Counted from the first letter of the stretch, positions 5,208 through 55,092 are shown. The stretch is 64,000 bases of DNA from Candidatus Omnitrophota bacterium (GCA_028716245.1 JAQUQW010000001.1:168793-232792); one strand, 5' to 3'. Notes: generated from the letters alone by a model not told the origin. Made by a program: numbers and translations.

Positions 5208-5302
5208 GTACCCCGCGCTTAGCGGAATTGCGCGGGGGTACACTATGGGCAACACCCCGCGTTTATAAGGAATTACGCGGGTGTGTCCTACTGACAAGGA
5301 GG
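5208..5302 (+). repeat. tandem pair of GC-hairpin repeat elements (core-only copy 5208-5241; full copy with hairpin 2 and SD 5253-5302) upstream of rplL
   Basis: GTACCCCGCGC-ttagcggaatt-GCGCGGGGGTAC, then CACCCCGCGt-ttataaggaatt-aCGCGGG-tgtGTCctactGACaAGGAGG. The innermost stem pair C:G is replaced by T:A and the hairpin-2 stem is altered (GTC/GAC vs GCCC/GGGC). Confidence 0.85.
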
Positions 5303-5307
5303 AAGAA

Positions 5308-5691
5308 ATGGCAACTGCAAAATTGGAAGATTTAATCAAGTCAATTGAGACGATGAGCGTTCTTGAGCTGGCTGACTTAGTTAAAGCTTTAGAGGAAAAA
5401 TTTGGTGTAAGCGCAAACATGCCGATGGCCGCAGCTCCTGCTGCCGGTGCTGCCGGTGCAGCTCCTGCTGCCGAAGAGAAGAGCGTTTTTACTGTAGTGC
5501 TGACTAGTGCCGGTGCAAATAAAATCGCAGTAATCAAAGAAGTGCGCACGATTACTAACCTTGGTTTGAAAGAAGCCAAAGATTTAGTTGATGCCGCTCC
5601 TAAAGCAATCAAAGAAGGCGCCAATAAAGAGGAAGCTGCGGAAATGAAGAAGAAACTGGAAGCAGCCGGTGCTACCGTAGAGTTAAAGTAA
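5308..5691 (+). CDS. rplL: 50S ribosomal protein L7/L12
   Basis: [21 protein letters not shown]...alanine-rich hinge...ELK. True start is ATG 5308 after AGGAGG; the track ORF's upstream extension at 5281 lies inside the repeat element. Confidence 0.9.
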
Positions 5692-5761
5692 ATTTAAGCA
5701 AGATTTCGTTAAATAAAAACGTAAGTGTTCAATTAAATAGGCCTAAGCTGGCCATAAAATA

Positions 5762-8700
5762 ATGATTAAACGAAAAAATTTTGCCAAGATAAAGGAAGTC
5801 TACGATTTACCTGATCTTTTAGATGTTCAGCTGGACACTTATCGTGAATTTCTGCAGATGGATCTGCCGGCCGGAGAAAAGAAAAATCAGGGCTTGCAGG
5901 AAGTTTTTGGTGAGATCTTTCCTATCGAAAACGCTGACCGTTCAGTGAAGCTGGAATTTATCAGTTATTCTTTAGGGAAACCCAAATACACAATGAGCGA
6001 ATCCAAAAATCGCTCATTAACTTATGCCGCCCCGTTAAAAGTAAAATTCCGCTTAACTACTCCCCGGGAAACAAAAGAGCAGGACGCTTATTTTGGGGAG
6101 ATTCCCTTGATGACCGAAACCGGGACTTTCATTATCAACGGTGATGAACGGGTGGTCGTTAGCCAGCTGCAACGATCTCCCGGAGTATCTTTTGAAGAAG
6201 AGCTGCATCCTACCGGAAAGAAGATTTTTTACGGCAGGGTTATTCCTTACCGCGGCGCTTGGTTAGAATTTAAATATGATCTTACCGAAACCATTACCGC
6301 TTATGTTGACCGCCGCAGGAATTTTCCCGCAACTCAAATTTTAAGGATCTTAGGTTTCTCCGAAGACAGCCAGATATTTGCCGCTTTTGGCAAAGAGCAT
6401 CCTGAAATTGTTAATACCCTGAAGAAAGATTACACTAAAAATAAAGAAGAAGCATACCTTGATTTCTACCGCAAAATGCGGCCGACGGAGCCGGTAACCA
6501 AAGAGGCTGCTGAAGGCTTGTTTTATAGATTATTTTTTGATCCGGCCAGATATGATTTAGAAAGAGCCGGCCGTTTTATTTTGAATCGTAAACTAGGGAT
6601 GGAGATGTCTTTAGATAAAAGGATACTTGATTCCGATACTGTAATTAAGGTGATCGAGTATTTAATTAAACTTAATGCCGGTTCGGGTAAAATTGATGAT
6701 ATTGACCATTTGGGAAACCGCCGCGTAAAGAGCGTCGGCGAGTTGGTTCAAAATCAGGTGCGTATCGGGTTATCCCGCGTTGAGCGTTCAATCAAAGAGA
6801 GGCTGAGTATTTTAGGTGAGTTTGATAATTTAAATGTGCATTACCTGATTAATTCCAAACTTTTAAGCAATCAAATCCGGGATTTCTTCGGGCGCAGCCA
6901 GTTATCCCAGTTTATGGATCAGATTAATCCTTTAGCCGAAATGACGCATAAGCGCCGTTTAAGCGCTTTAGGGCCGGGAGGGCTTTCCCGCGAAAGGGCG
7001 GGGTTTGAGGTCAGGGATATCCACCCTTCACATTATGGAAGGGTTTGTCCTATTGAGACACCGGAAGGCCCGAATATCGGTTTGATTGCCTCTTTGAGTT
7101 GTTTTGCGCGGATTAATTCTTTAGGCCTGATCGAGACTCCTTACCGTAAAGTAGAAGACGGCCGGGTGACTAAAAAATTTGAATATTTGACCGCGGACAT
7201 TGAAGAGGATAAGTTTATCGCCCAAGCTGATGTCCCGTTAGATAGCGAAGGGTATTTTGTGGATAAATTTGTTACCTGCCGCTATAAGGATGATTTCCCG
7301 AAAGTGCCGGCAAAAGATGTGCAGTATATGGATGTTTCGGCAAAACAGCTGGTTTCCGTCGCTGCTTCCCTGATTCCTTTCTTAGAGCACGATGATGCCA
7401 ACCGCGCGTTGATGGGTTCAAACATGCAAAGGCAGGCTGTTCCCTTGATGATTACCGAGGTACCTTTGGTTGGTACCGATATGGAAGCAAAAGTCGCCCA
7501 GGATTCCGGCACCGTAGTTATCGCCGAGGATTCCGGAAAAGTAACCAGCGTCGATGCTTCCGCCATTACCGTGGGTAAGAAAATTTATCATCTGAAGAAA
7601 TTTTTGCGTACTAATGCCGATACCTCGATAAATCAAAGGCCGCTGGTAAAATTAGGCGAGCGTATCGAAGCAGGCCAGGCGATTGCCGATGGTATTGCTA
7701 CCAAAGAAGGTGAATTGGCTTTAGGTAAGAATGTTTTAGTCTCTTTAATGCCCTGGAGAGGTTATAACTTTGAAGACGCTATTCTTATCAGCGAGAGATT
7801 GGTTAAGCAGGATTCTTTTACCTCGATCCATATCGAAGAATTTGAGATTGAAGCTGCCGAAACCCGGCTGGGCAATGAAGAGATTACCCGTGATATTCCT
7901 AATGTCAGTGAAGAAGCTTTAAGAAATCTTGATGAGGATGGGATTATTCGAGTCGGGGCGGAGGTTGGGGCCGGAGATATTCTGGTTGGCAAAATTACTC
8001 CCAAGACCGATTCTGAACCCAGCCCGGAAGAAAGATTGCTGCGCGCAATTTTCGGCGAGAAAGCCGGCGATGTCCGTGACACTTCTCTAATTGTCCCTCC
8101 CGGAGTTGAAGGCATAGTTATTGATGTTCATGTTTTTCAGCGCAAAGACCGCGGCCGTAAAACTAAAGAAGAAAAGACTAAAGAATTAGCAAAAATCCGC
8201 GAACTCAAAGCGTATTATAAGCAAGAGATCGAATTTTTACAGGCCGAGAAAACTTTACGTTTATCTCAGGTGTTGGGAATAGATAAGAAAAAAGTAGAGA
8301 AGTTTGATTTCAGCGATAATGAAGAGGCAAAGATTTTAGCTGCTTCCTTTGATGAGCAGATGCAGGAGTTGTTGGCTGAAGAGGAGCAAGAGATTGAAAA
8401 GGTGCGCCGCGGCGATGAATTACCCACGGGTATCTTAAAGAGGGTTGTAGTCTATGTGGCTACAAAACGCAAACTTTCCGAAGGTGATAAACTTGCCGGC
8501 CGGCACGGTAATAAGGGTGTGGTTGCCAGGATTATCCCTGAAGAAAATATGCCTTATATGCCTGACGGTACTCCGGTAGATGTGGTTTTGAATCCATTAG
8601 GCGTTCCTTCGCGTATGAACGTAGGCCAGATCTTGGAATGCCATTTAGGCTGGGCGGCCAAAGTTTTAGGGATAAATGTCAGTTGCCCTGTGTTTGACGG

Positions 8701-9166
8701 GGCCAAAGAGGCTGAAATCAAGGAGTTGCTTAAGAAGGCGGATTTGCCGGAAGACGGAAAGATTACCCTCTACGATGGTTATACCGGTGAGCCTTTTGAT
8801 CAGAAGGTTACCGTAGGGTACATGTACATTTTAAAACTTATCCATTTAGTTGATGAAAAAATTCATGCCCGCTCTATCGGGCCTTATTCTTTGGTTACGC
8901 AGCAGCCATTAGGCGGTAAAGCGCAATTTGGCGGCCAGAGATTAGGTGAAATGGAAGTTTGGGCTCTAGAAGCGTATGGAGCGGCATTCACTTTACAGGA
9001 GATGCTTACGGTTAAGAGTGATGATGTCAGCGGCAGGACGCGGATTTATGAAGCGATTGTTAAGGGTGAGCAGCGTTTAACTCACGGGACTCCGGAATCA
9101 TTTAATGTTCTAATCAAGGAATTGCAAGGCTTGTGTCTTGATATCAAGACAGAAAAGGCTAAATAA
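5762..9166 (+). CDS. rpoB: DNA-directed RNA polymerase subunit beta
   Basis: 1134 aa with canonical RpoB motifs ([23 protein letters not shown]). Confidence 0.97.
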
Positions 9167-12100
9167 TGGAAGAGATCGTATCGTTTGACAGTATTTCAAT
9201 TAAGATTGCCAGCCCTCAGGTAATTAAAGGATGGTCTAAGGGCGACGTCAAAAAAGCCGAAACGATTAATTACCGCACCCTCAAGCCGGAAAAAGACGGC
9301 CTGTTTTGTGAAAAGATTTTTGGCCCGGTGCGTGACTGGGAATGTAATTGCGGTAAATATAAAGGCATAAAATTCAAAGGTATTACCTGTGACCGTTGCG
9401 GAGTAACGGTTGATCGTTCAAGTGTCCGGCGCGAACGCATGGGGCATATTGATTTAGCTACGCCGGTTACGCATATCTGGTTTTTTAAGGCTGTGCCCAG
9501 CAGGATGAGCGCGCTCTTAGATATCGGCTTAAGGGATTTGGAAAGAATTATCTATTATGAGGAATATGTTGTAGTGGATCCCGGGAGTACGCCATTAAAG
9601 AAAAAAGAGCTGCTTACCGATGAACAATATCAGGAAGCGCTGAGCAAATATGGCGCAAGTTTCAAGGCCAAGATTGGCGCCGAGGCAATCAGCGAACTTT
9701 TGAAGGAATTAGACCTGGATGCGGTCTGCCGTAAATTCAGGAAAGATTTAGAGAAATCCAAAGACGTTTTAAATAACCGCAAAGCGATTAAGAGCTTAAA
9801 GATTGTCGAGGATTTTAAGAAAAGCGGGAATAAGCCGGAATGGATGATTTTAGAAATTGTTCCGGTAATCCCTCCGGATTTGCGCCCCCTGGTTCCTTTG
9901 GAGGGCGGAAGGTTTGCCACAAGCGATCTTAATGATTTATACCGCCGGGTAATTAACCGCAATAATCGTTTAAAGAAATTAATGGAGTTAAGTGCCCCTG
10001 AGATTATTATCCGCAATGAAAAGCGCATGCTTCAGGAAGCAGTGGATGCGCTTTTGGATAATGGCCGCCATGGTAAGCCGGTAAACGGCGCCAATAACCG
10101 TCCGTTGAAATCCCTTTCCGATATGCTTAAAGGAAAGCAGGGAAGGTTCCGCCAGAATCTTCTGGGTAAGCGCGTAGATTATTCGGGGCGTTCGGTAATT
10201 GTTGTGGGCCCGGAGTTAAAACTTCATGAATGCGGGCTTCCTAAACAGATGGCCCTGGAGTTATTTGAGCCGTTTATTATTAAGAAATTAAGAGAAAAAG
10301 GGTTTGTACATACGATCAAAGGCGCCCGCCGAATGGTTGAGCGCGGTAAGATCGAAGTCTGGGATATTTTGGATGAAGTGATTAAAGACCATCCGATCAT
10401 GCTCAACCGTGCCCCGACCCTGCACCGTTTAGGTATTCAGGCATTCCAGCCGTTGTTAATCGAAGGAAAATCAATAAAAATACATCCATTAGTTTGTACT
10501 GCTTTTAACGCCGACTTTGACGGGGATCAGATGGCTGTGCATGTGCCTTTATCCTTGGAATCACAATTAGAGACCAAGGTGCTCATTATGGCCATTAATA
10601 ACATATTTTCTCCTGCTGATGGCCGGCCGGTAATTTCTCCTACTCAGGATATAATTTTGGGCCTGGCATATTTGAGCCGGGAAAAAGCAGGCGCGCAAGG
10701 CGAGGGAAAAATCTTCTCCAGCCCTGATGAAGTTTTAATCGCTTATGATGATAAGGCAGTGGAGTTACACGCTAAAATCAAGATTTACGTTCATAGCTTA
10801 TATAATTTTGACCAGAAAAAGGCCATTGACGCAAAGCAGATGATCACGACTACTGTCGGCCGGGTATTATTCAATCAGGCCTTGCCTCCCGAGTTTGGGT
10901 TTGTCAATTGTGATTTAAATAAAGGTAAGGTCAGCGATGTGGTGGTTAGCTGCTATAAGAGGTTTGGCCACACTACGACCATTAAACTGCTCGATGATAT
11001 TAAAAGATTAGGTTTTGAGATGGGCACCCTGGGCGGTATCTCTATTGGAATTGATGACATGACTGTTCCCGTAGATAAGCCCCAAGTTTTAAAAGAATCT
11101 AAAGAAGAGGTAGCTAAGGTTGAAGATCAATACCGTAAAGGTATCATTACTGACAGCGAGCGTAAATCCAAGGTAATTGATATCTGGACGCACGCGACGG
11201 ATAAAATTTCGGATCTTTTGTTTAAGGGTATGGATTCTTTTAACCCGATCTTTATGATGGCAGACAGCGGGGCGCGCGGTTCGCGCCTGCAGGTCAGGCA
11301 GCTTGCCGGTATGCGCGGCCTGATGGCTAAGCCCAGCGGGGAAATCATTGAGAACCCGATTACGGCAAATTTCCGCGAAGGCTTGAATGTTTTAGAGTAT
11401 TTTATTTCTACCCACGGCGCGCGAAAAGGCTTGGCTGATACTGCGCTTAAAACCGCGGATGCAGGTTATTTAACCCGCAGGCTGGTCGATGTTGCTCAAG
11501 AGGTGATTATTTGCGAGGAGGATTGCGGGACGCTTAATGGTATTACGGTTTCGGCGATTACTGAAGGTGACGAAGAGGTGGTCGGGCTTAAAGACCGGAT
11601 CATCGGAAGAGTTGCTTTGGACAATGTGGTTGATATTATTACCGATGAGGTTATTGTTGAGCAGGGAAGCGAAATAACCGAGGAGAAGACCGAACAGATT
11701 GAAAGATTAGGAATTGAAAAAATCCGTATTCGCAGCGTTTTAACCTGTGAATCCGGAAGGGGAGTTTGCGCTAAATGTTATGGCCGCAATCTTTCTACCG
11801 GCAGGTTAATCGAATTAGGAGAAGCTGTCGGGGTTGTGGCTGCCCAGAGTATCGGTGAGCCCGGTACGCAGTTGACCATGAGGACATTCCATATCGGAGG
11901 TACCGCCTCAAGGACTATTGAGCAGTCATTTATTAAAGCCAAGAATGAAGGTATAATCAAATATCATAATTTAAGGGTTACGCTTAAGAATAAAGAGTAT
12001 GTCGTCTTAAACAGAAATGGGGCAATCAGTATTAACGATGCCCAGGGCCGGGAACTAGAGCGTTATCCGCTTCCGCAAGGCGCGTTCATTCTTATTGCCG

Positions 12101-13200
12101 ACGGAGAAAAGGTTACCAAGGGGGTATCTTTTGTGCATTGGGATCCTTATACCTTACCGGTGCTTACTGAAGTTGGCGGTATAGTGCGTTTTGAAGATTT
12201 ACGCGAAAATGTTACGATGCGTGAAGAGATTAATCCGGTCACAAAATTAGCTGAGCGCGTAGTGGTTGAACATAAGCCGGAGTATCATCCTCAGGTAGTT
12301 ATCCTGGATGATAAAAAAGAAGTTTTAGGGATATATCCTATTCCTATCGGCGCCCACATTATTGTTCGCGATGGCGAACGGGTAGGCGGAGGAGACCTCC
12401 TGGCAAAAATTCCGCGTACCGTTGTTAAAACCCGCGATATTACCGGCGGCCTTCCGCGCGTTGCCGAGCTTTTTGAAGCCAGGCGCCCGAAGGATCCGGC
12501 CATTATCAGTGAAATTGACGGGTTTGTTGAGTTTGGGGAAACCAAGAAAAATCAGCGCGTAATCATTATAAAATCGGCAACCGGCATGGCCAGGGAATAT
12601 ATTATTCCCCATGGTAAACATCCGAATGTTTACAAAGGGGATAAAGTTACCGCCGGCCAGCAGCTTACCGACGGTCCGGTAGTTTTGCAGGATATTTTAA
12701 GTGTCTGCGGCGATAAGGTTTTGCAGGAGTACTTGGTAAATGAAGTGCAGGAGGTTTATCGCTTGCAGGGAGTGCGGATTAATGATAAGCATATCGAAGT
12801 AATTATCCGCCAGATGCTCAAAAAAGTAAGGGTTGAGGATCCGGGTGATACGGAGTTTTTGGCTACCCAGCAGGTAGATAAATGGGTATTCCAAAAAGAG
12901 AATACCCGGGTGATCAAAAAAGGCGGCAAGCCGGCTCAGGCAACGCCCCTGCTTTTGGGCATTACCAAGGCTTCGCTTACTACCGAGAGTTTTATCTCCG
13001 CTGCCAGTTTTCAGGAAACTACCCGCGTTCTAACCGAGGCGGCAACCAGCGGTAAACGGGATGAATTATTTGGTTTAAAAGAAAATGTTATCGTTGGGCA
13101 CTTGATTCCGGCTGGTACCGGATTTAGGGCCCATCGCGATATTGAAGTAGTAAAAGTAGGAGCTGAAAACAGCGAGGAAAAGAAAGAGAAAAAGGAATAA
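9166..13200 (+). CDS. rpoC: DNA-directed RNA polymerase subunit beta'
   Basis: 1344 aa; NADFDGD catalytic motif and Zn-binding CxxC cluster near the N-terminus. Confidence 0.97.
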
Positions 13201-13203
13201 CCT

Positions 13204-13581
13204 ATGCCCACAATTGCCCAGTTAATCAGACACGGTAGAATTTCGAAAAAGAAGCGAAGTAAGTCTCCGGCTTTAAAAGCTTGTCCTCAAAGGAGAGGCG
13301 TATGTATCCAAGTGCGTACGATGACGCCGAAGAAACCTAACTCTGCGCTGCGTAAGATTGCCAGGGTCAGGCTGACAACGGGCTTAGAAGTTACTGCCTA
13401 TATTCCGGGTGAAGGGCATAATCTTCAGGAGCATTCCATTGTTATGGTCAGAGGCGGCAGGGTTAAAGATTTACCCGGTGTGCGTTACCATATTATCAGA
13501 GGCACATTGGATGCTTCAGGGGTTAACGCCCGCAGAAGAGGGCGCTCTAAATACGGAGCCAAGAGGCCAAAAGCGGCTTAA
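13204..13581 (+). CDS. rpsL: 30S ribosomal protein S12
   Basis: [12 protein letters not shown]...[10 protein letters not shown] motif. Confidence 0.97.
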
Positions 13582-13588
13582 TAATTTA

Positions 13589-13640
13589 TACCCCGCGCTT
13601 ATAAGGTATTGCGCGGGTGTGCCCTTGTGGGCAAAGGATA
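13589..13640 (+). repeat. GC-hairpin repeat element (full copy) upstream of rpsG
   Basis: taCCCCGCGC-ttataaggtatt-GCGCGGG-tgtGCCCttgtGGGC-aaagga, then ATG at 13645. Confidence 0.85.
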
Positions 13641-13644
13641 ATCG

Positions 13645-14115
13645 ATGAGAAGAAGAAAAGCGCAGGAAAAAGTTATTCTAGCAGACCCTAAATATAACAG
13701 CAAAATAATCGCCAAGTTTATGAATATGGTTATGGTCGACGGAAAGAAGGCTGTGGCGGAAAAATTAGTTTACAGCGCTTTTGATATTGTGCTCAAGAAT
13801 TTAAATGAGCAGGATATTTTAAAAGTATTTTATAAGGCATTAGATAATGCCCGGCCGCGCCTGGAAGTAAAACCGCGCAGGGTTGGCGGGGCTACTTATC
13901 AGGTGCCGATAGAAGTAAGGCAGGAGCGCGGCACCTCCATTGCCTTGCGTTGGATCAGGGATTTTGCCCAGAATAGAAAAGGCAAGCCTATGCAGGAAAA
14001 ATTAGCCGATGAAATTATCGCCGCGTACAAGGGCGAGGGTTCGGCAATCAAAAAGAGGGATGATACGCATAAGATGGCTGAGTCCAACAAGGCCTATGCG
14101 CATTTTAGATGGTAA
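13645..14115 (+). CDS. rpsG: 30S ribosomal protein S7
   Basis: S7 family sequence; str operon order. Confidence 0.95.
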   Translation: MRRRKAQEKVILADPKYNSKIIAKFMNMVMVDGKKAVAEKLVYSAFDIVLKNLNEQDILKVFYKALDNARPRLEVKPRRVGGATYQVPIEVRQERGTSIALRWIRDFAQNRKGKPMQEKLADEIIAAYKGEGSAIKKRDDTHKMAESNKAYAHFRW

Positions 14116-14202
14116 ATAGTTCCCGCCTCAAATTATTCGGCGGGATTAATTCGCGCATTAACTTACTCACACTGTCGTGTTCGTAAGTTAAGCGCTCATT
14201 AA

Positions 14203-16299
14203 ATGAGAAAGATTCCTTTAGATAAAATTAGAAATATCGGAATAATTGCCCACATCGACGCCGGAAAAACTACGACCAGCGAGCGTGTTTTGTTTTATAC
14301 TGGTAAAAATTATAAGATTGGCGAGGTGCATGACGGGGCAGCGACTATGGACTGGATGGTCCAGGAGCAGGAAAGGGGCATTACGATTACCGCCGCCGCG
14401 ACTACTTGTAAATGGAAGGATATCACGATTAATTTAATTGATACTCCGGGCCACGTGGATTTTACCATTGAAGTGGAAAGGTCATTGAAGGTTTTAGACG
14501 GTGCGGTGGTTGTTTTTTGCGGAGTCGGAGGGGTTGAACCGCAATCAGAAACCGTATGGCGCCAGGCGGACCGTTATGGCGTGCCAAGGATCGCCTTTGT
14601 CAATAAGATGGACCGCACAGGTTCGGATTTTTTTGCGGCAATTGACCAGATGCACCAAAGACTAGGAGCCAATGCCGCGGCAATCCAGCTTCCGGTTGGC
14701 CGGGAAGGCGGTTTTAACGGGCTTGTAGACTTGGTTGAGAAAAAATTGATTCATTATGAAGATGAACTCGGGAAAGAATTTGAGATAAAAGAAATTCCGG
14801 AAGATTTAATTGCCGATTTTGAAAAACACCGTATGATCCTGGTGGAAAAAGTTGCCGAAGCGGATGATAAAATTATGGAAGATTATTTACAGGGTAAGGT
14901 TGTAACTAATGAAGAGTTAAAAGCGGCCATCCGCAGAAGCGTAATTGCAAATAAATTTGTGCCGGTCCTTTGCGGATCGGCTTTTAAAAATAAAGGCGTG
15001 CAAATGGTCTTGGATGCGGTAAAGGATTATCTGCCTTCTCCGGTTGATGTGCCCCCGGTAAAAGGCACAAATCCGGATACGGGGGAATTCGAAGAGGTAA
15101 CCGCAAGCGATGAAGCTCCTTTTACTGCCTTATGTTTTAAGGTAGCCTCAGATCCTTTTGTCGGCAAAATCTATTTTACAAGAATGTATTCGGGAACGCT
15201 TGCTTCGGGAACTTATATTTACAATGCTACTAAAAGAGAAAGAGAGCGTGTGACTAAAATTGTTAAAATGCACGCTAACCACCAGGAGGTTACGGACAGT
15301 ATTTCTACGGGCGATATTGCCGCGCTGGTGGGTTTAAAAGATACCAAGACCGGTGACACTTTATGCACGGAAAAAAACCCGATTCTTATTGAAGCCATGC
15401 GTTTTCCGGAACCGGTTATTCAGCAGGCAATTGAGCCTAAGAGCAAGGATGCCCAGGAGAAACTGGGTATTGCCATGCATAAGTTAGAAGATGAAGATCC
15501 GTCATTTCGGGTTACTTATAATCAAGAGACCGGACAGACCCTGATTGCCGGTATGGGCCAGCTGCATTTGGAAATTATTATTGACCGGATTTTACGCGAG
15601 TTTAATGTTGAGGCTACGGTTGGGGCTCCGCAGGTTGCCTACCGGGAGACAATCAAGAAAAGTGTTCCTAGCGTCGGAAAATTTATTTCCCAATCCGGCG
15701 GCCGCGGGCAATACGGCCATTGTGTCATTGAGATGAGTCCGCAAGAGACTCCGGGCACAGGCATAACCTTTGAAGATAAAATAAAAAGCGGCGCTATCCC
15801 GCGTGAATTTATCCCGGCGGTAAAACAGGGCGTAATGGGCGCGGCTAAGAATGGCGTTTTGGCCGGTTATCCGGTTACCGATGTCAAAGTTGTTTTGGTC
15901 GACGGTTCATTTCATGAAGTCGATTCTTCGGAATTGGCATTTAAAATGGCAGGTTCCCTGGCTTTTCAGGATGGGATGAAAAGGGCCAAGCCAGTTTTAT
16001 TAGAACCGATTATGGATATTGAGGTAGTTGTGCCCGAAGAATTTATGGGACAGATTATCGGTGATTTAAGCAGCCGGCGCGCAAAAATAATTGCCCTTGG
16101 TCAGAGGTTAAATTTACGTACCATCCGTGCCAATGTTCCGTTGTCGGAAGTTTTTAATTACGCAACGGTAATAAGATCCTTGACACAGGGCCGTGCATCA
16201 TATACAATGGAACCTTCCTTTTACAGCGAAGTTCCAACACAGGTAGCGGAAAAAGTTATTCAAGGCTCAACAAACACAAAAGAAAGAAAGACATTTTAA
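14203..16299 (+). CDS. fusA: elongation factor G
   Basis: [11 protein letters not shown]-loop, RGITI switch I, 698 aa. Confidence 0.97.
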
Positions 16300-16306
16300 A
16301 AAAACA

Positions 16307-16357
16307 CACCCCGCGCTTATAAGGTATTGCGCGGGTGTGCCCTTAGGGGCAAGGAGG
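16307..16357 (+). repeat. GC-hairpin repeat element (full copy) upstream of tuf
   Basis: caCCCCGCGC-ttataaggtatt-GCGCGGG-tgtGCCCttagGGGC-AAGGAGG, then ATG at 16365. Confidence 0.85.
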
Positions 16358-16364
16358 ATAAGAA

Positions 16365-17567
16365 ATGGCTAAAGAAAAATTTGTAAGGAGTAAGCCGCAC
16401 GTCAATATCGGGACCATCGGGCACATCGATCACGGTAAAACTACCCTTACTGCTGCTATCTGCAATGTTCTTTCCAAGCTTGGAAAAGCTACTGCCAGAG
16501 ATTACGCGGATATTGCTAAAGGCGGAACAGTGCGCGATGACACAAAGGTTGTTACCATCTCTGTTGCTCACGTCGAATATGAAACAGACAGCCGCCATTA
16601 CGCCCATATCGACTGTCCGGGCCATGCGGATTATATCAAGAATATGATTACCGGTGCCGCCCAGATGGATGGGGCAATTTTGGTTGTTTCAGCAGCTGAC
16701 GGCCCGATGCCTCAGACCAGAGAACATATACTTTTGGCCCGCCAGGTAAATGTGCCGGCGATGGTCGTGTTTATGAATAAGGTTGATTTAGTGGATGACA
16801 AAGAGCTTTTGGATCTGGTTGAGATGGAAATAAGGGATCTTTTAACCAAATACGGATATCCGGGGGACAAAACGCCGATTATCCGCGGTAGCTCAAATAA
16901 AGCTTATGCGGCAACCGATCCTAATAGCCCAGAGGCCAAACCGATTTTGGATTTAATGAAAGCGGTTGATGAGTTTATTCCTCTTCCTCCCAGAGAGTTA
17001 GACAAGCCTTTACTGATGGCAGTCGAAGATGTTTTCAGTATTGAAGGTAGAGGGACTGTGGCAACCGGAAGAATCGAGCGCGGTAAGGTTAAAGTTGGCG
17101 AGGAAGTCGAGATTATCGGTTTAAGGCCGGAACCCAAGAAATCCGTAGTTACCGGAATCGAAATGTTCCGTAAGCTTTTGGATGAAGGCCAGGCTGGTGA
17201 TAATGTTGGTTTGCTTTTAAGAGGCGTAGAAAAGAATGATGTTGAGCGCGGAATGGTTATTGCGGCTCCCAAATCTATTCACCCGCACACGAAATTCAAG
17301 GCTCAGGTTTACATCCTGACCAAAGAAGAAGGCGGAAGGCACACTCCATTTTTTAAGGGGTACAGGCCGCAATTCTATTTCCGTACAACAGATGTAACCG
17401 GTACAGCCGGTCTTCCGGCTAACGTGGAAATGGTTATGCCCGGGGATAATGTGGCTTTGGATGTCGAGTTAATTACTCCGATTGCCATTGAGAAGGAATC
17501 ACGTTTTGCTATCCGTGAAGGCGGCCACACCGTAGGAGCAGGCGTAGTTACCGAGGTTATTGCATAA
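16365..17567 (+). CDS. tuf: elongation factor Tu (divergent switch I)
   Basis: [15 protein letters not shown]-loop, [12 protein letters not shown]. The canonical EEKARGITIN is replaced by DDTKVVTIS. Confidence 0.95.
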
Positions 17568-17570
17568 ACA

Positions 17571-17876
17571 ATGAATACGCAAAAGATTCGCATTAAATTA
17601 AAAGCCTATGATCACCGGCTTTTAGATCAGGCAGTTATCGAGATCGTGGATACCGTTAAGCGCACCGGGGCTAAGATTTCCGGCCCCGTGCCGCTTCCCA
17701 CAAAAAGGGAGATTTATACGGTGCTGCGTTCGGTGCACGTTGATAAAAAATCACGTGAACAGTTTGATTTATCTACCCATAAACGCCTTATTGACATCTT
17801 TGAACCTACAGCTAAGACCATCGATTCATTAAGGAAATTAAACCTGCCTGCAGGAGTGGACGTAGAGATCAAGTAG
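17571..17876 (+). CDS. rpsJ: 30S ribosomal protein S10
   Basis: [16 protein letters not shown] motif. Confidence 0.95.
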
Positions 17877-17899
17877 TAAATCAAAGACGGATAAATTAA

Positions 17900-18535
17900 A
17901 TGATTGGTTTGATTGGTAAAAAAATTGGAATGACTCAGGTGTTTGCCTCGGATAACAGCCAGGTTGGGGTTACGGCTATCCAGGCCGGGCCTTGCCCGAT
18001 CCTGAGGGTTATGGATAAGAATATCCAATTGGGTTTTGATTTGGCAAAAGAAAAAAGTGTAAAGAAGCCGCAATTGGGGCTTTATAAAAAATTAAATATT
18101 GCTCCGCGTAAGGTGATTAAAGATATTTCAAAAGAAGCTAATGTTGAATATAAAGTGGGGGATGAGCTTAAAGTTGATCTTTTTGCCGAAGGCGATTTTG
18201 TGGATGTCCGCGGGACTTCCATTGGAAAAAGTTTCCAGGGTGGTATGAAGCGTTGGCATTGGAAGGGTGGTCCGAGAACCCACGGTTCAACTTCGCACCG
18301 CCGGGTTGGCTCCATTGGTTCCAGCACTACTCCCGGCCGTGTCTTTAGGGGGCATCATATGCCCGGGCACATGGGCGCCAAAAACGCAACGGTACAAAAC
18401 TTAAAAGTGATCAAAGTAGATTTAGAAAATAATCTTTTGTTGGTTGAGGGAGGGGTTCCCGGATTTAAAAATGGGTATCTAGTAGTTACCAAATCTTTTA
18501 AAAAGAAAGCAAAGAAAGCGGCAGTGAAAAAATAA
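17900..18535 (+). CDS. rplC: 50S ribosomal protein L3
   Basis: S10 operon order and sequence. Confidence 0.95.
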
Positions 18536-18536
18536 T

Positions 18537-19181
18537 ATGTTTACCTTACCCGTATATAATAGCCAAGGCGCGGAAGTTGAGACGATAAAACTCGATGCCG
18601 CAATTTTTGACGCAAGCCTGAATACCAATAGCTTGCATCAGGCTATTGAAGGTTACCGGGCTAACCAGAGAAAAGGATTGGCTTCAACTAAGACCCGCGG
18701 CGAAGTTTCCGGAGGCGGTAAGAAACCCTGGAAGCAAAAGGGGACAGGGCGTGCCCGCGTAGGTTCCACGCGTTCTCCTCTTTGGAGGCATGGCGGGGTA
18801 GTTTTTGGCCCGCATCCGCGCGATTTTTCTTATGATGTCCCGCAAAAAATCAAGGCCGCGGCTTTAAAAACAAGTTTAAATCTTAAGCTCAAAGAAAATA
18901 ATTTTGTGGTCTTGGATGATTTTAAAATCGATGCGCCCAAGACTAAGGAGGCGGTAAAGGTATTTACTAATTTAAAATTATTTTCCGCAAAAGATAAAAA
19001 AATAAAAAAGGTTTTATTCTTAACGCATAAACTGGATGGCCAATTAAAAGTGTCCTTAAAGAATATTGGTTTCTTAACGGTAAATTTGGCTTCTGACTGC
19101 CATGCTTACGAAGTAATGAATAATCAAAAGCTGCTGATCACTAAAGCCGGATTAACGGATTTGACTAAGAGGTTAAAGTAA
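18537..19181 (+). CDS. rplD: 50S ribosomal protein L4
   Basis: S10 operon order and sequence. Confidence 0.93.
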   Translation: MFTLPVYNSQGAEVETIKLDAAIFDASLNTNSLHQAIEGYRANQRKGLASTKTRGEVSGGGKKPWKQKGTGRARVGSTRSPLWRHGGVVFGPHPRDFSYDVPQKIKAAALKTSLNLKLKENNFVVLDDFKIDAPKTKEAVKVFTNLKLFSAKDKKIKKVLFLTHKLDGQLKVSLKNIGFLTVNLASDCHAYEVMNNQKLLITKAGLTDLTKRLK

Positions 19182-19459
19182 TGACCGCAATTACCGCGAT
19201 AATTAAAGCACTTTTACAGACTGAAAAATCAAGCACCTATTTGCCTAAAGGCAAGTATCTTTTTTTGGTAGATAATTCTGCGAATAAGATCCAGATTAAA
19301 AGAGCCGTGGAGCAGGCTTATAAAGTTAAGGTTAAGGACGTCAATACCTTTGTTTCTATGGGTAAACTTAAAAGGGTAAGGCATCAATTGGGACGCACAT
19401 CCGACACGAAAAAAGCCGTAGTTACTTTAGTGGCCGGGCAAAAAATAGAGGTAGCATAA
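19181..19459 (+). CDS. rplW: 50S ribosomal protein L23
   Basis: S10 operon order and sequence. Confidence 0.9.
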
Positions 19460-19460
19460 T

Positions 19461-20297
19461 ATGGGGATCATTAAATTTAAACCGACAACACCAAGCCGCA
19501 GGCATATGAGCGGGCCGGATTTTTCCGAGATCACTAAGAATAAACCGGAGCGTTCCTTGCTGGTCGCGCTTAAGAAAACCGGCGGAAGAAATTCTTACGG
19601 CCGGATCACGACCCGCCATATCGGCGGCGGGCACAAGCGCATGCTGCGGATAATTGATTTTAAACGCAACATCTACGATCAGCCGGCAAAGGTTATTGCC
19701 ATTGAATATGACCCTAACCGTTCCGCCAGGATTGCTTTGGTTGAATACCCAGATAAGCGCAAGAGCTATATTATTGCTCCCTTGGGGCTTAATGTGGGAG
19801 ATATGGTTATTGCCAGTGATCAGAAAGATATTGAAATTAAAATCGGGAATTGCCTTCTTCTGCGTAATATTCCTTCCGGTACCTTGATTCATAATATTGA
19901 GTTATTTAAGGGCAAGGGCGGCCAAATTGTGCGCGGGGCAGGAACCAGCGCCCAGATTATGGCTAAAGAGGCGGATATGGCGCATATCCGATTGCCTTCC
20001 GGAGAGGTCAGGTTAGTAAGTTTAGATTGTCATGCTACTATTGGACAGATCGGTAATATCGATCATGACGCGATTGTTTTAGGCAAAGCCGGCAAGAGCC
20101 GCTGGCTGGGGATTAAACCTTCAGTAAGAGGAGTAGTAATGAATCCGTTTGACCATCCTCACGGCGGCGGAGAAGGCAAAAGCGGGCAGGGCAATCCGCA
20201 TCCGGTTACTCCCTGGGGCAAGCCGACTAAAGGTTATCGTACCAGGAATCGTAATAAGTATTCTAATAAATTTATCGTTAAAAGAAGGAAGCCATAA
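19461..20297 (+). CDS. rplB: 50S ribosomal protein L2
   Basis: Conserved L2 motifs ([14 protein letters not shown]). Confidence 0.97.
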
Positions 20298-20299
20298 TT

Positions 20300-20587
20300 A
20301 TGCCGCGCTCACTGAAAAAAGGACCGTACGTGGAGGAAAGTTTATTAAAAAAGATAGAAAAGCAGACCAAAGCCGGATTGCGCCAGGCAATTAAAACCTG
20401 GAGCAGGCGCTCGACGATCCTGCCGGATTTTGTGGGATTGACCTTTGCGGTTTACGACGGCAAAAAGCACGTTCCGGTTTTTATTACCGAAAATATGGTC
20501 GGCCATAAATTAGGGGAATTTTCCCCTTCCAGGATCTTCAGGAAGCACGGTGGTATTAAGGCCAAGAAAGCGCTGGAAAAGACATAA
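20300..20587 (+). CDS. rpsS: 30S ribosomal protein S19
   Basis: [10 protein letters not shown] start. Confidence 0.95.
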
Positions 20588-20588
20588 A

Positions 20589-20927
20589 ATGATTTCAAAA
20601 GCCGAAGGAAAATTTTTAAGGATTTCACCCAGCAAGGTGCGTATCGTTGCCGATCTTATCCGCGGCAAGGATGCCCTCCAGGCGCAAAGCATCCTGCTGC
20701 ATTTGAATAAAAGATCAAAAGAGTTCCTCATAAAAATATTGAAATCCGCGATCGCTAACGCTAAAGTCAAGGGTTTTGCGGCCGAGAAATTGTATATTTC
20801 CAAGATTGTTTGTAATCCCGGGCCGATGTGGAAAAGATTTAAGGCCGCTGCTTTTGGCCGGGCCGCATCAATAGTTAAGCGTACAGTACATATAAAAATT
20901 GAGTTGGATTTAAAGCCGGGGGAATAA
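20589..20927 (+). CDS. rplV: 50S ribosomal protein L22
   Basis: L22 family sequence. Start is more likely the internal ATG at 20589 (MISKAEGKF) just after the rpsS stop than the overlapping ATG at 20550. Confidence 0.9.
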   Translation: MISKAEGKFLRISPSKVRIVADLIRGKDALQAQSILLHLNKRSKEFLIKILKSAIANAKVKGFAAEKLYISKIVCNPGPMWKRFKAAAFGRAASIVKRTVHIKIELDLKPGE

Positions 20928-20930
20928 TTC

Positions 20931-21644: not shown

Positions 21645-21712
21645 AGCAAGGAGCTTGCCCTACCTCGTAAACTCGGTAGGACATCGCTAGATAAAGGATT
21701 AAAGGTGCTCGA

Positions 21713-22129: not shown

Positions 22130-22130
22130 C

Positions 22131-22322: not shown

Positions 22323-22323
22323 T

Positions 22324-24033: not shown

Positions 24034-24037
24034 ATTA

Positions 24038-24087
24038 CACCCCGCGCTTATAATGAATTGCGCGGGTGTGCCCGTGTGGGCTAGGAG
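24038..24087 (+). repeat. GC-hairpin repeat element (full copy) upstream of rpsH
   Basis: caCCCCGCGC-ttataatgaatt-GCGCGGG-tgtGCCCgtgtGGGC-tAGGAG, then ATG at 24093. Confidence 0.85.
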
Positions 24088-24488: not shown

Positions 24489-24495
24489 GGAATGG

Positions 24496-24540
24496 CACCC
24501 CGCGCTTATAAGGTATTGCGCGGGTGTCCTCTAATTGAGG
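24496..24540 (+). repeat. GC-hairpin repeat element (variant hairpin 2) upstream of rplF
   Basis: caCCCCGCGC-ttataaggtatt-GCGCGGG-tgtCCTCtaattGAGG. Hairpin 2 is replaced by CCTC/GAGG, whose 3' arm doubles as the SD; ATG at 24550. Confidence 0.8.
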
Positions 24541-24549
24541 AAAAAATAA

Positions 24550-29428: not shown

Positions 29429-29542
29429 ATGAAAGTTAAAGCGTCGATCCGTAAAATTTGCGATAAGTGTAAAATAATAAAAAGAAGAGGGGTAGTGCGG
29501 GTTATTTGCGTAACTACTAAACATAAACAGAGGCAAGGATAA
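29429..29542 (+). CDS. rpmJ: 50S ribosomal protein L36 (37 aa, Zn-ribbon C-x2-C-x12-C-x4-H)
   Basis: Hand-translated as [37 protein letters not shown]; it is not in the ORF track because it is <60 aa. Confidence 0.85.
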
Positions 29543-29585
29543 CACCCCGCGCTAGGCAGCGCAGTGTGCACTTGTGATCAAGGAG
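29543..29585 (+). repeat. degenerate GC-hairpin repeat element upstream of rpsM
   Basis: caCCCCGCGC-taggca-GCGCag-tgtGCaCttgtGatC-AAGGAG. The right arm of stem 1 and both hairpin-2 arms are mutated. Confidence 0.65.
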
Positions 29586-35103: not shown

Positions 35104-35202
35104 TACCCCGCGCTTAGCGAGGCACCCGACGCTAATAGGTATTGCGTCGGTGTGCGCTAGGTAGCGCAAATTGCGCGGGTGTTGTCTATGTAGACAAGGA
35201 GG
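35104..35202 (+). repeat. compound/nested GC-hairpin repeat element upstream of pilT
   Basis: The outer CCCCGCGC...GCGCGGG stem encloses an inner variant copy (CCGACGC-taataggtatt-GCGTCGG) plus a GCGCTA/TAGCGC hairpin. Hairpin 2 is TGTCTA-tg-TAGACA, followed by AGGAGG. Confidence 0.75.
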
Positions 35203-46260: not shown

Positions 46261-48318
46261 ATGTTTTGCAATAGGTCGGCAGCAAGATTTTTAGTTGCGC
46301 TATCAGTTGTTTTGGGAACTTTTGTTTTTTCTTATGCAGATGATGTGGATTTGGAAAAAATTGTGGTAACTCCGTATCGTTATGGCGAAAGTTTAGCTAA
46401 AACAGCGGCGGATGTTACTGTAGTGACAAAAGGAGATATAGAAGGATCAAATTCTCACAATGTGGTTGATGTATTTAGGTCAATACCCGGGGTTACAGTG
46501 CGGGATTATTTTGGCAACGGAACTCAAGCAACAGTAGATATAGGAGGCTTTGGAGAGCAGGGGCCACTTAACGTATTAGTATTAGTTGACGGCCGGCGCG
46601 CAAACAATGTTGACTTAAGCGGCGTTAACTGGAATCAAATTCCGCTTGATGAAGTAGAGCGTATCGAAGTTGTTCGCGGAGGTTCTGGCGCAGTGCTATA
46701 CGGTGATAATGCATCTAGTGGCGTAGTCAATATTATTACCAAAAAGGGTTCAGGAAAACCAAAAGTAGAACTAGAAACTGAATACGGCAGCTATGATATG
46801 AACAAAGAAAAATTATCTCTAGGTGGTAAAGTTAACAATAAGCTTTCTTATTGGTTTAGCCTTGGACGCGATTCTACTAATGGCTATCGCAATAACAGCT
46901 TTAACAAAGATAGTGATTTTGCTTCTAAAATCGCTTATGATTTTAATGATATGCTGTCTGCACATTTTGACTCGGGATTTCATGCTTCAACTTATGGTCT
47001 GCCTGGGGCATTGTTTCAAAGTGATATAGATCAGCATAGCAGGAGGTATGCCAGATTCGGCAATGATCATGCTAATGGTAAAGACTACTATTTTGTTCTT
47101 GGGCCAAAACTCCAATTTCTAGGATTGGGAAATCTTAATTTGGATTTTAGTTACCGTCAGAATGATGTTGATTCATATTATCTGACCTCAAACCATCTTG
47201 CTTACAGGAATAGTATTGAAACTTTTGGGATGACGCCGAAGTATACGTTAGACAATAGCATTTTTAATCACGATAATAAATTCATCGCCGGGCTCGATTT
47301 TTACCGTTCTCTATATAGTTCAAGATCCTGCCCTATGTCTGATGATAGTACAGTAAATCAATATACGGATATTCATAAGAATTCATTAGGAAGCTACCTG
47401 CAGGATGAGTTTTCTATTCTTAAACAGTTAACTCTAGTAGGTGGCTACCGCCATGAATTTGCTGATTACACATTTGCTTATCATGATAATACCGGATTTA
47501 ACCCCGACCAAGATACTAAAGTAAAATTTAATATGGATTCTTTTAACAGCGGCCTTACCTATACTTATAAAGATGATTCAAATGTTTTTTTAAATGTGAA
47601 CAGAAGCTTCCGTTTTCCCGAAGTAGATGAGTTTACCTATATGGATGCAACGTCTTTTCAAACGCTGCTTAATACTGATCTTAAGCCGCAATCTTCGATA
47701 GATTACCAAATTGGTTTGCGGCATAAATTTTCTGACCGTTTTAAGGGTAACTTATCATTATTTAGAATGAATGTTAAAAATGAGTTGTATCTTAATGCCA
47801 CGGATACTTGGGATGGCTTCGAGTGGAATAGTAAGAATGAAAATTATGATAGAACTGTTCATGAAGGCCTGGAATCATCATTGGATGCCAAGCTTAATGA
47901 TTGGGTAACATTATTCGGAAATTATACTTTTACCAATGCCTATTTTGATGGTGGACAATATAGCGGGAGCCAGATACCTTTGGTATCTAAGCATAAAGGA
48001 AGCGTTGGATTAAAATTCGCATTACCAATGGATATATCCTTAAATATTATTGGTACTTATCTAGGTCCTAGATATTATTTAAACGATCAGGCAAACGCTT
48101 ATTCTAAGTTAAATGGGTATATGGTTGCCGACACCAATTTGTCTTGGCATTGTAAGGATTTTAAAGTCACATTTGGAATTAATAATCTTTTTGATAAGCA
48201 ATATTCGGAATATGCCGGAGTGTTGCAAGGATTTTCTGTGGGGCATGCCGTAGGTGATAAATTCTATTATCCTAATCCGGGAAGAAATTTTAGTTTAAAA
48301 GTTAACTATACTTTTTAA
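46261..48318 (+). CDS. TonB-dependent outer membrane receptor (BtuB-like)
   Basis: Signal peptide, TonB-box-like DLEKIVVT, plug plus barrel length, C-terminal aromatic residue; under the B12 riboswitch. Confidence 0.85.
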   Translation: MFCNRSAARFLVALSVVLGTFVFSYADDVDLEKIVVTPYRYGESLAKTAADVTVVTKGDIEGSNSHNVVDVFRSIPGVTVRDYFGNGTQATVDIGGFGEQGPLNVLVLVDGRRANNVDLSGVNWNQIPLDEVERIEVVRGGSGAVLYGDNASSGVVNIITKKGSGKPKVELETEYGSYDMNKEKLSLGGKVNNKLSYWFSLGRDSTNGYRNNSFNKDSDFASKIAYDFNDMLSAHFDSGFHASTYGLPGALFQSDIDQHSRRYARFGNDHANGKDYYFVLGPKLQFLGLGNLNLDFSYRQNDVDSYYLTSNHLAYRNSIETFGMTPKYTLDNSIFNHDNKFIAGLDFYRSLYSSRSCPMSDDSTVNQYTDIHKNSLGSYLQDEFSILKQLTLVGGYRHEFADYTFAYHDNTGFNPDQDTKVKFNMDSFNSGLTYTYKDDSNVFLNVNRSFRFPEVDEFTYMDATSFQTLLNTDLKPQSSIDYQIGLRHKFSDRFKGNLSLFRMNVKNELYLNATDTWDGFEWNSKNENYDRTVHEGLESSLDAKLNDWVTLFGNYTFTNAYFDGGQYSGSQIPLVSKHKGSVGLKFALPMDISLNIIGTYLGPRYYLNDQANAYSKLNGYMVADTNLSWHCKDFKVTFGINNLFDKQYSEYAGVLQGFSVGHAVGDKFYYPNPGRNFSLKVNYTF

Positions 48319-54334: not shown

Positions 54335-54346
54335 GGAAGGGGAAGT

Positions 54347-54787
54347 ATGAATATAACTTATAAAGGTGATTACGCGTTAAAAGCGCTTTTGGATTTAGCG
54401 GTGCATTATGACTTAGGATTATCAACGATACACGATATTGCCAAGCGTATCAATGCCCCGGTTAAGTTTCTTGAACAGGTCCTTCTGGATTTAAAAAAGG
54501 GCGGTTTTGTGGAAAGCCGGCGCGGTAATGTCGGTGGTTATTTGCTCTCCCGGCCTCCGGCTAAAATAGTGTTGGGAGATGTGGTTAGATTTATTGACGG
54601 CCCGACAGAGCCGATTGCCTGTGTTGGAAGTGATTATTCAGGTTGTACCGATATATATAGGTGTAGTTTTCGCAGGATCTGGCAGGATGTAGCCAAAGCT
54701 ACTTCGGGGATAATCGATAATATAACCTTTGAAGACTTGGTAAATAAGCTAGAAGTGAACAAAGAAGCGCTGGTTTATCAGATTTAA
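54347..54787 (+). CDS. Rrf2-family transcriptional regulator (IscR/CymR-like; 3 Cys, possible Fe-S ligands)
   Basis: N-terminal wHTH (YALKALLDLA...STIHDIAKRINAP) and CVGSDYSGCTDIYRC cysteine cluster. Confidence 0.8.
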   Translation: MNITYKGDYALKALLDLAVHYDLGLSTIHDIAKRINAPVKFLEQVLLDLKKGGFVESRRGNVGGYLLSRPPAKIVLGDVVRFIDGPTEPIACVGSDYSGCTDIYRCSFRRIWQDVAKATSGIIDNITFEDLVNKLEVNKEALVYQI

Positions 54788-54794
54788 ATAAGCG

Positions 54795-54983
54795 TTGATG
54801 AAAATGGAAAATATAAAAATAGGCAGTGATACGGTTATTAAAAACATTAAAGAGGCGGTTTTGGGCCTTGATTATGGTGACGTCCTGATCAAAGTGCATA
54901 ATTCCAGGATTGTGCAGATTGAGGTGACTCAAAGGAAGCGTTTTGACGATGCCCATAAAATTGAAGGAGGTGGCGGAATATAG
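54795..54983 (+). CDS. DUF2292 (YezD-like) small protein
   Basis: 62 aa; the GDVLIKVHNSRIVQIE motif resembles YezD. This family is commonly co-located with sulfur assimilation genes. Confidence 0.6.
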   Translation: MMKMENIKIGSDTVIKNIKEAVLGLDYGDVLIKVHNSRIVQIEVTQRKRFDDAHKIEGGGGI

Positions 54984-55041
54984 CTTTAGGTATTATTAGT
55001 AAGCTTAATAAGAGATGGTGAAATTATTATTAATTCAGTAG

Positions 55042-55092
55042 CACCCCGCGCTTATAAGGAATTGCGCGGGTGTGCCCTTGTGGGCAAGGAGG
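55042..55092 (+). repeat. GC-hairpin repeat element (full copy) upstream of cysH
   Basis: caCCCCGCGC-ttataaggaatt-GCGCGGG-tgtGCCCttgtGGGC-AAGGAGG, then ATG at 55099. Confidence 0.85.

Follow-up and report, generated by a model that had tools for sequence, protein, structure and literature searches.

A two-hairpin repeat family in sense orientation upstream of start codons in Candidatus Omnitrophota

Small repeats oriented directly upstream of open reading frames (ORFs) are represented by the REP2 (contact-regulated element) of Neisseria and by an inverted repeat (IR) of Borrelia plasmids, in which two predicted stem-loops are followed by a ribosome-binding site (RBS) and a co-regulated gene set is marked (Delihas review, PMC3184786). 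Repetitive extragenic palindromic (REP) sequences and bacterial interspersed mosaic elements (BIMEs) of enterobacteria and pseudomonads are multicopy extragenic palindromes, short and rich in GC, that often lie within operons; known as mRNA stabilisers, they also affect translation when near a stop codon. Mycobacterial interspersed repetitive units (MIRUs) are 40-100-bp repeats of operon spacers that are transcribed in polycistronic mRNA and occur in tandem copies and at sites filled or empty among relatives. Here a repeat family of a different make is described from a 64,000-nt stretch of a Candidatus Omnitrophota bacterium (GCA_028716245.1, JAQUQW010000001.1:168793-232792; hereafter the window, meaning this whole stretch) and from other genomes. 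Each unit consists of a conserved hairpin (H1) and a second, variable hairpin (H2). The element is structured in the sense strand, both hairpins are under selection, and it is transcribed; it lies between an upstream stop codon or promoter and a native Shine-Dalgarno (SD) sequence, preferentially before genes in high demand. The window holds eight loci with ten hairpin units, all on the + strand.

Structure, placement and distribution of the element

At the eight loci the order is (A/G)(C/T)AC-CCCGCGC, a loop of 11-12 nt, GCGCGGG-UGU, the second hairpin, the SD and, 5-8 nt further on, ATG. H1 has a GC-rich stem of 10 bp in which one C is bulged. Conserved in it are the base CAC(C)C/GGGUG that holds the bulge, the GC pairs at the top and, in the loop, the 3' half GG(A/U)AUU, while its variation sits mid-stem, where CCCGCGC, CCCGGCGC, CCCGACGC, CCCAACGC, CCTGGCGC and CCCGGCCC each occur with a matching 3' arm. 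In alignment A2, which takes in divergent copies and is fitted to the model and so favours the H1 structure, 96.7% of H1 cells were paired (25-67% in slid controls) and two-sided changes were present in 6 of the 10 pairs (37 cells), a result matched by 0 of 500 shuffles. Pairs of the G:U type outnumbered those of the A:C type by 33 to 14, an excess that weakly favours folding of the sense strand. H2 is a hairpin of 4-6 bp and variable sequence that directly follows H1, with a loop that is mostly NNGU, and ends 0-2 nt before the SD. It folds in 87 of the 93 SD-followed copies, using 26 different complementary arm pairs, with a mean folding free energy of -5.7 kcal/mol (-0.7 in shuffles). Many of the rare arm pairs are two coordinated changes away from common ones, which points to selection on pairing locus by locus. 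An earlier note on the window, made from its sequence, had argued for selection on structure, and this argument is upheld by compensatory changes in both hairpins.

Placement relative to genes was compared with flipped and random controls. Within 90 nt downstream, 106 of 162 H1 units have an SD, a start codon and an ORF 50 or more codons long (9/162 when flipped, 14% at random positions), with the start codon 22-28 nt past H1 in 80 of those 106. When units were grouped into arrays, a start codon followed 104 of 141 (74%), compared with 15 of 141 (11%) when flipped and 18% at random positions; several of the other arrays have a very short ORF downstream or lie at the end of a contig. The proposed family of structured, oriented elements directly upstream of starts is real. 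By contig strand, 91 arrays are on + and 50 on -, co-oriented with local genes, and 104 of the 141 are flanked on both sides by co-oriented genes. An ORF-based gene call places 71 of the 74 genes of the window on the + strand, the three minus-strand calls being probably spurious, so that the window alone cannot test a gene-tied orientation and other genomes are needed; GC skew is positive over the whole window (1-64000), at 0.09-0.19. At locus L014, rpsT lies between plus-strand holA and murJ and has a minus-strand copy before it, and 5 kb away a PilT-like gene is preceded by a copy on the plus strand; these copies on opposite strands match their genes, and orientation therefore follows the gene and not the replication fork.

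The opposite boundary of the element is often an upstream stop codon. In the window, 7 of 8 copies begin 0-8 nt past one, and among 93 arrays with a co-oriented upstream ORF, H1 lies at most 10 nt from its stop in 42 and at most 20 nt in 55. The claim that reverse-strand copies are lacking holds for the window but not for the family, since antisense and 3'-end copies were verified in other Omnitrophota lineages; copies facing away from the adjacent start codon are present at L022 and L084. A minority without an SD, mostly from other lineages (Velamenicoccus and several groundwater metagenome-assembled genomes, MAGs), has an H2 loop of the TTTCTG type.

The SD and the bases that follow it are common to orthologous sites with the element (filled) and without it (empty). 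The SD is thus native and the unit ends 0-2 nt before it, contrary to the suggestion that the element carries its own. Promoter-like sequences lie upstream of the element. The rpsT copy is preceded by TTGACA-18-AATAAT (11/12 match) ending 17 nt before H1, and the groES copies have a 12/12 promoter consensus 45 nt upstream. A promoter-like site within 150 nt upstream was found for 28% of arrays and for 12% of random windows, the -10 ends clustering 10-20 nt before H1, and at promoter-proximal copies transcription is predicted to start a few nucleotides before H1. With near-consensus promoters upstream of it, the element is transcribed, either as most of a 5' untranslated region (5'UTR) or as an intercistronic spacer. 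A consensus scan of the copies in 5001-25000 gave no sigma-70-like and no terminator-like site on any copy; H1 is trailed by UGUG and then H2, where an intrinsic terminator consists of a GC hairpin and a U tract. Within the window, TTGACA-17-TACAAT (11/12) is present at 16180-16208 (+) inside the 3' end of fusA, about 100 nt before the tuf copy, and also in L057. This site suggests an internal tuf promoter, with the element then in the tuf 5'UTR.

The genes that follow the element are enriched in ribosomal proteins, EF-Tu, chaperones and SSB. A Pfam run on 101 downstream products returned 126 families in total, among which L7/L12 was found five times, GSIII and PilT-like ATPases three times each, and L20, S8, L6, S6, L35, EF-Tu, SSB, P-II, OmpH, CysK-type PALP enzymes, chorismate synthase, PhoU and CdhD twice each. 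By eye, the downstream set also includes GroES, DnaK, HU, ATP synthase subunit c, S16, S20 and L31. Ribosomal proteins make up about one fifth of the set, by a rough estimate several times their genome share, and the same orthologues are preceded by the element in different species.

The distribution of the element was surveyed by an exact-pattern scan of one genome per species. Among the matches listed, it is present in more than 120 stretches from about 56 assemblies (counted from contig prefixes), nearly all of them Candidatus Omnitrophota MAGs, with the complete genome of Ca. Velamenicoccus archaeovorus among the carriers; a few carrier records bear the label Planctomycetales or Bacillota. 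From alignment A1 a covariance model restricted to H1 was built (R1), and it found 153 H1 units over 120 loci. The sole match in a Binataceae MAG (L080, 4462-4486) consists of the core palindrome only (model positions 9-34) in a GC-rich context and, judged by its sequence, is probably a chance match, being without the flanking CAC/GTGT, H2 and SD. Viral contigs scanned for the pattern gave 0 matches. In a scan of the window against Rfam 15 at the gathering threshold, only a cobalamin riboswitch and two tRNAs passed and the element was unmatched; permissive Rfam scans over three copies returned chance-level matches only (freshwater-2 at 15.6 bits, E 9.4; mir-557). Literature searches for the element sequence and for repeats of Omnitrophota or Velamenicoccus found no description of it in the library searched, and the preprint on complete Omnitrophota genomes is silent. 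The earlier impression that this is not a described element is therefore borne out by Rfam and the literature alike.

Copies within the 64-kb window

On re-reading, all eight loci of the earlier note were found at their coordinates. The pattern CCCGCGC-N12-GCGCGGG, with at most 2 mismatches, matches the window 6 times compared with 0.23 expected, a count reached by 0 of 100 shuffles. Model R1, run over the whole window with filters off, recovered the same copies as nine + strand units, starting at 5204, 5248, 13584, 16302, 24033, 24491, 29538, 35118 and 55037 (model E-values are rough), with no further copy and no independent minus-strand copy. A repeat search of the window detected no other real repeat family. 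Pfam agreed with the downstream identities given previously, i.e. L7/L12, S7, EF-Tu, S8, L6, S13, a PilT-like ATPase and 3'-phosphoadenosine 5'-phosphosulfate (PAPS) reductase, and both the C:G to T:A compensatory change in the 5253 copy and the listed H2 variants are as described. In minimum free energy (MFE) folds of the canonical window copies, H1 and H2 form and the SD and AUG are left unpaired, while the MFE fold of the 29538 copy is no better than those of shuffles.

The rplL gene is preceded by a tandem pair. The upstream unit, H1a (5208..5241, +; R1 44.6 bits), begins 3 nt past the rplJ stop codon (5202-5204) and has a variant 11-nt loop, TTAGCGGAATT. The downstream unit, H1b (5252-5284, +; 59.2 bits), has the T:A closing pair, and the copy that it opens (5252..5302, +) continues with the H2 GTC/GAC (5285-5295) and the SD AAGGAGG (5296-5302) before the rplL ATG at 5308. 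Four single copies share the H2 arms GCCC/GGGC. The rpsG copy (13588..13638, +; 63 bits) consists of H1 at 13588-13620, the H2 GCCC/GGGC at 13621-13632 and the SD AAGGA at 13634-13638, with the rpsG ATG at 13645. The tuf copy (16306..16357, +; 65.6 bits) begins 6 nt past the fusA stop codon, with H1 at 16306-16338, the H2 GCCC/GGGC at 16339-16350, the SD AAGGAGG at 16351-16357 and the tuf ATG at 16365. The rpsH copy (24037..24087, +; 60.3 bits) has H1 at 24037-24069, the H2 GCCC/GGGC at 24070-24081, the SD TAGGAG at 24082-24087 and the rpsH ATG at 24093. The fourth copy (55041..55092, +; 66.5 bits) precedes the PAPS-reductase (cysH-like) gene, with H1 at 55041-55073, the H2 GCCC/GGGC at 55074-55085, the SD AAGGAGG at 55086-55092 and the ATG at 55099.

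The remaining copies depart from this form. In the rplF copy (24495..24541, +; H1 24495-24527; 62.1 bits) the H2 is CCTC/GAGG (24528-24540), and its 3' arm doubles as the SD (GAGGA, 24537-24541), with the rplF ATG at 24550. The SD is in this way paired with an anti-SD-like arm (CCUC/GAGG, 24528-24541), an arrangement kept in L024; L043 and L085 have an H2 of CCUCC/GGAGG, and these SD-pairing forms may represent a version of the module for coupling or occlusion. The rpsM copy (29542..29585, +) is degenerate, with CACCCC, a short GCGCT/AGCGC hairpin, GTGTG and a decayed H2; it scores a weak 14.7 bits (E 0.027) and retains the SD AAGGAG (29580-29585) before the rpsM ATG at 29591. The copy upstream of the PilT-like gene (35104..35202, +) is a nested composite in which an inner unit splits the loop of an outer one. 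The outer H1 arms lie at 35104-35113 and 35173-35182, the inner H1 at 35123-35152 and the inner H2 at 35154-35167; the unit starting at 35118 in the R1 scan is the inner one (35.1 bits). The outer H2, TGTCTA/TAGACA (35183-35196), is followed by the SD AAGGAGG (35196-35202) and the ATG at 35208.

Other features of the window and of related loci were noted alongside. Genes for tRNA-Thr (2432-2504) and tRNA-Trp (2670-2742) precede the secE-nusG-rplKAJL cluster in the window. In three other species a copy converges on a tRNA 3' end upstream of the secE-nusG-rplK cluster (L001 2747-2788, L081 1487-1528, L115 694-735), apparently at the same site. At L019, copies at 904-944 and 1048-1089 flank a tRNA gene, one of them directly upstream of it in sense. 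At L048 an antisense copy (2880-2935) lies just past the rplL stop codon, with an AT-rich stretch, TATAAGTATATATAGG, and then the rpoB SD after it; in this species rplL itself is not preceded by a copy. The cobalamin riboswitch (RF00174, 45962-46141, +; 83.7 bits), directly 5' of a 685-aa ORF (46261-48318), is unrelated to the repeats.

Turnover and candidate roles

Orthologous junctions differ in whether they hold the element, with flanking proteins 80-99% identical between genomes. The rpsL-rpsG junction is filled in the window and empty in a close relative (L057; flanking proteins 99% identical), rpsH-rplF is filled in the window and in L024 and empty in L003, and rpmJ-rpsM is degenerate in the window and empty in L003. 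The rpsN-rpsH junction is filled in the window and in L003 and has a different spacer in L024; this spacer, about 110 nt long with inverted repeats of its own (AATACTTTGCC...GGCAAAGTATT and GACTTGC...), may be another structured element. In three filled/empty comparisons there was no target-site duplication and no clean insertion; short native spacers had been replaced, which is not the pattern of miniature inverted-repeat transposable elements (MITEs). Within nested copies (L087, L006 and the window at 35104) the canonical loop TTATAAGG^AATT is split, exactly at the caret, by a complete unit from CAC to the end of H2, and inner and tandem units have no SD. An array at L100 (7530-7835) holds at least four units, with triple nesting and head-to-tail 48-nt repeats, and runs to the contig end, which suggests that the repeat breaks short-read assemblies. 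The 5' flank profile of the copies shows only A-A-W-R-R, confounded by stop codons, and no insertion target motif can be claimed from it. The REP/MITE-like character once proposed for the element is accordingly seen in its tandem and nested units and its presence/absence differences, but not in an SD of its own.

With roughly even confidence, we read the element as an Omnitrophota-specific family of small structured repeats that acts in cis on the sense-strand mRNA, in a 5'UTR or intercistronic spacer, and turns over in a REP-like manner. H1 would be the hairpin that a conserved factor acting in trans, an endoribonuclease or else an RNA-binding protein, recognises, and could also be a barrier to exonucleases and ribosomes. 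RNase E prefers RN|WUU, which the loop motif fits, a lead rather than a test. H2 would leave the downstream cistron with a short stem-loop at its 5' end or close to it, and together the two hairpins would make downstream stability and translation independent of upstream sequence. The module may in this way mark high-demand genes such as those for ribosomal proteins, EF-Tu, GroES/DnaK, SSB, P-II and glutamine synthetase. Where H1 falls within the footprint of a terminating ribosome, it may also lower the output of the upstream cistron; stable hairpins near a stop codon are reported to make ribosomes stall at termination (Liang et al. 2015, cited in PMC12306157). The family itself would turn over by REP-like duplication or insertion of the discrete H1+H2 unit.

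Several observations weigh against a cis-acting mRNA module. Neither the natural H2 nor the natural element raises the predicted unpaired probability of the SD above that with shuffled ones: over 79 copies in 190-nt contexts, the SD 7-mer was unpaired with probability 0.523 for natural sequences, 0.526 with H2 shuffled and 0.492 with the element shuffled, differences that were not significant, and SD exposure was dropped as a role of H2. Antisense copies are present inside operons at L048 (rplL-rpoB) and L015, a copy lies between convergent genes at L013, and the tRNA-adjacent copies of L001, L081, L115 and L019 cannot act through translation. The REP-like traits, i.e. tandem and nested units and differences in presence or absence between close relatives, are real. 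Gene calls in the loci are ORF-based and crude, the seed copies were gathered by a pattern that fixes the stem and the loop ends, making sequence conservation partly a collection effect, and processing, factor binding and any effect on expression are inferred.

The main rival is a purely selfish REP/MITE-like mobile repeat without host function, which we regard as possible though on the unlikely side and which is compatible with a cis-acting mRNA module rather than exclusive of it. An enzyme would copy H1+H2 into single-stranded or A-rich targets, and the placement would result from insertion bias, for example toward the non-template strand exposed at highly transcribed genes, and from the purging of harmful insertions. 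Such an origin agrees with the exact splitting of the canonical loop by a complete unit (L087, L006), with the head-to-tail arrays of L100, with junctions filled or empty between closely similar flanking proteins, and with the antisense, convergent and tRNA-adjacent copies of other lineages. REP sequences are normally species-specific, whereas the same H1 sequence is kept over the roughly 56 species-level assemblies among the matches listed. H2 is kept by compensatory changes at single-copy loci (the 26 arm pairs), the element recurs at the same orthologous genes in different species, and filled and empty sites are distinguished by neither target-site duplication nor clean insertion. A tblastn search with the IS200 and IS608 TnpA proteins, a weak test, found nothing (E > 1) and no Y1-transposase-like ORF in about 960 kb around the copies, and the pattern is absent from viral contigs. 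Selection alone, moreover, leaves the rarity of the reverse orientation before starts unexplained.

Another reading is a device that acts on the upstream cistron, in which H1, inside the footprint of the ribosome terminating at the upstream stop codon, would stall or slow termination, or couple or uncouple re-initiation, and so lower the upstream product relative to the downstream one (L10 versus L7/L12, EF-G versus EF-Tu). Such an effect on termination is reported for REPs of E. coli that lie within about 15 nt of a stop codon (Liang et al. 2015, cited in PMC12306157), 7 of the 8 window copies begin 0-8 nt past an upstream stop codon and 42 of 93 arrays at most 10 nt from one (55 at most 20 nt), and the CCUC pairing of the rplF-copy H2 with the SD GAGG, kept in L024, is compatible with coupling. 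About half of the arrays, however, are not near an upstream stop, many copies stand behind promoters in monocistronic 5'UTRs with no upstream cistron at all (rpsT, groES, HU), and the conserved loop, the bulged C and H2 would be left unexplained; we regard an expression-ratio device as distinctly unlikely. An internal promoter, with TATAAG in the loop as a -10, or a DNA operator, in which the GC palindrome binds a dimeric transcription factor, is highly improbable and already largely refuted. The commonest loop variant does contain TATAAG and the element does precede genes that need more expression than their upstream neighbours, but the copies in 5001-25000 have no sigma-70-like site, the loop variants TTAGCGGAATT, TTATCGGAATT and TAATTGGAATT have no TATAA, and what the loop conserves is GG(A/U)AUU. 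The upstream flank has no conserved -35, separate near-consensus promoters lie upstream of the element, and the compensatory covariation with its G:U excess argues for a folded single strand and not a duplex operator. On these grounds the internal-promoter role considered in the earlier note is not supported.

Within the cis-acting mRNA module reading, a bolder and, in our view, unlikely proposal is that H1 is the operator of a phylum-wide post-transcriptional regulon, in which one RNA-binding protein or endoribonuclease reads the bulged-C hairpin and the GG(A/U)AUU loop. Such a regulon, whose cis-element spreads in the manner of a mobile repeat, would co-ordinately control the stability or translation of ribosomal-protein, EF-Tu, chaperone, SSB and nitrogen-assimilation mRNAs and would be the bacterial equivalent of the iron-responsive element/iron regulatory protein (IRE/IRP) or 5' terminal oligopyrimidine (5'TOP) systems.

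In studied bacteria, ribosomal-protein genes are under many different operon-specific operators. A single structured element, shared by many genes for ribosomal proteins, elongation factors and chaperones and placed before them, would organise growth-related expression on a different principle; here the element is conserved throughout an entire phylum that is largely uncultured. The repeats are also an example of how a proliferating sequence becomes, or stays compatible with, a precisely positioned expression signal. In practical terms, the element can serve as a sequence marker for Omnitrophota contigs, and as a repeat it will interrupt assemblies of short reads at highly expressed genes. The 176 complete Omnitrophota genomes recently reported (preprint 10.64898/2026.06.07.730766) enable whole-genome counts of copies and orientations, as well as phylogenetic profiling for a partner protein.

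Comparison with described systems

Autoregulatory r-protein operators (S7, S4, S8, L20) were rejected because one identical element cannot serve several repressors and many non-ribosomal genes are preceded too. A CsrA site, which combines a loop GGA with a GGA in the SD, is not favoured since the loop is GG(A/U) rather than strictly GGA; GGU, UGA and other non-GGA loops are common. The 3' end of 16S rRNA was sought in the loci for pairing between the loop and the anti-SD, and no rRNA is present there.

Neisseria REP2 shares with the Omnitrophota element two stem-loops placed upstream of ORFs in one orientation. It is longer, holds its own promoter, RBS and ATG, and is restricted to one genus in about 25 copies. 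In the Omnitrophota element the promoter is outside the unit and the SD is native, copies are mostly intercistronic, and the family is phylum-wide.

The resemblance to REPs lies in size and abundance, with an H1 of about 33 nt (REPs are GC-rich palindromes of 20-40 nt) and eight loci in 64 kb, and in the clustering and presence/absence polymorphism of both. REPs differ in having a GTAG or CGTC head, in occurring in both orientations, typically as inverted pairs, in lying mostly 3' of genes, and in being species-specific and tied to REP-associated tyrosine transposases (RAYTs). The Omnitrophota element has the head (A/G)CAC; its flank profile shows no GTAG or CGTC head, and its 5' end, (A/G)(C/T)AC, pairs with G(U/C)(G/A)U. 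The arrangement of copies is direct, tandem or nested, and 74% of arrays are in sense next to a start codon. No inverted pairs were noted among arrays that were built from same-strand matches and in which pairs were not systematically counted. Intercistronic position, orientation with the operon and frequent tandem arrangement are shared with MIRUs. These, however, hold short ORFs whose ends overlap the stop and start codons on either side, and they show tetranucleotide direct repeats at filled sites, the second of which is not seen here; MIRUs also lack the architecture of two hairpins and a conserved loop.

The RNase III hairpins of phage T7 and the protein-binding sites of chloroplasts are likewise families of sense-oriented intercistronic elements, which after cleavage or protein binding protect upstream 3' and downstream 5' RNA ends and can enhance downstream translation. 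The likeness is a functional analogy only, with no sequence or structural homology to the Omnitrophota element, and the 10 bp of H1 fall short of a classical RNase III substrate. Compared with all of these systems, the element is unusual in that its sequence is conserved phylum-wide, it is strictly placed before the SD and it nests in its own loop.

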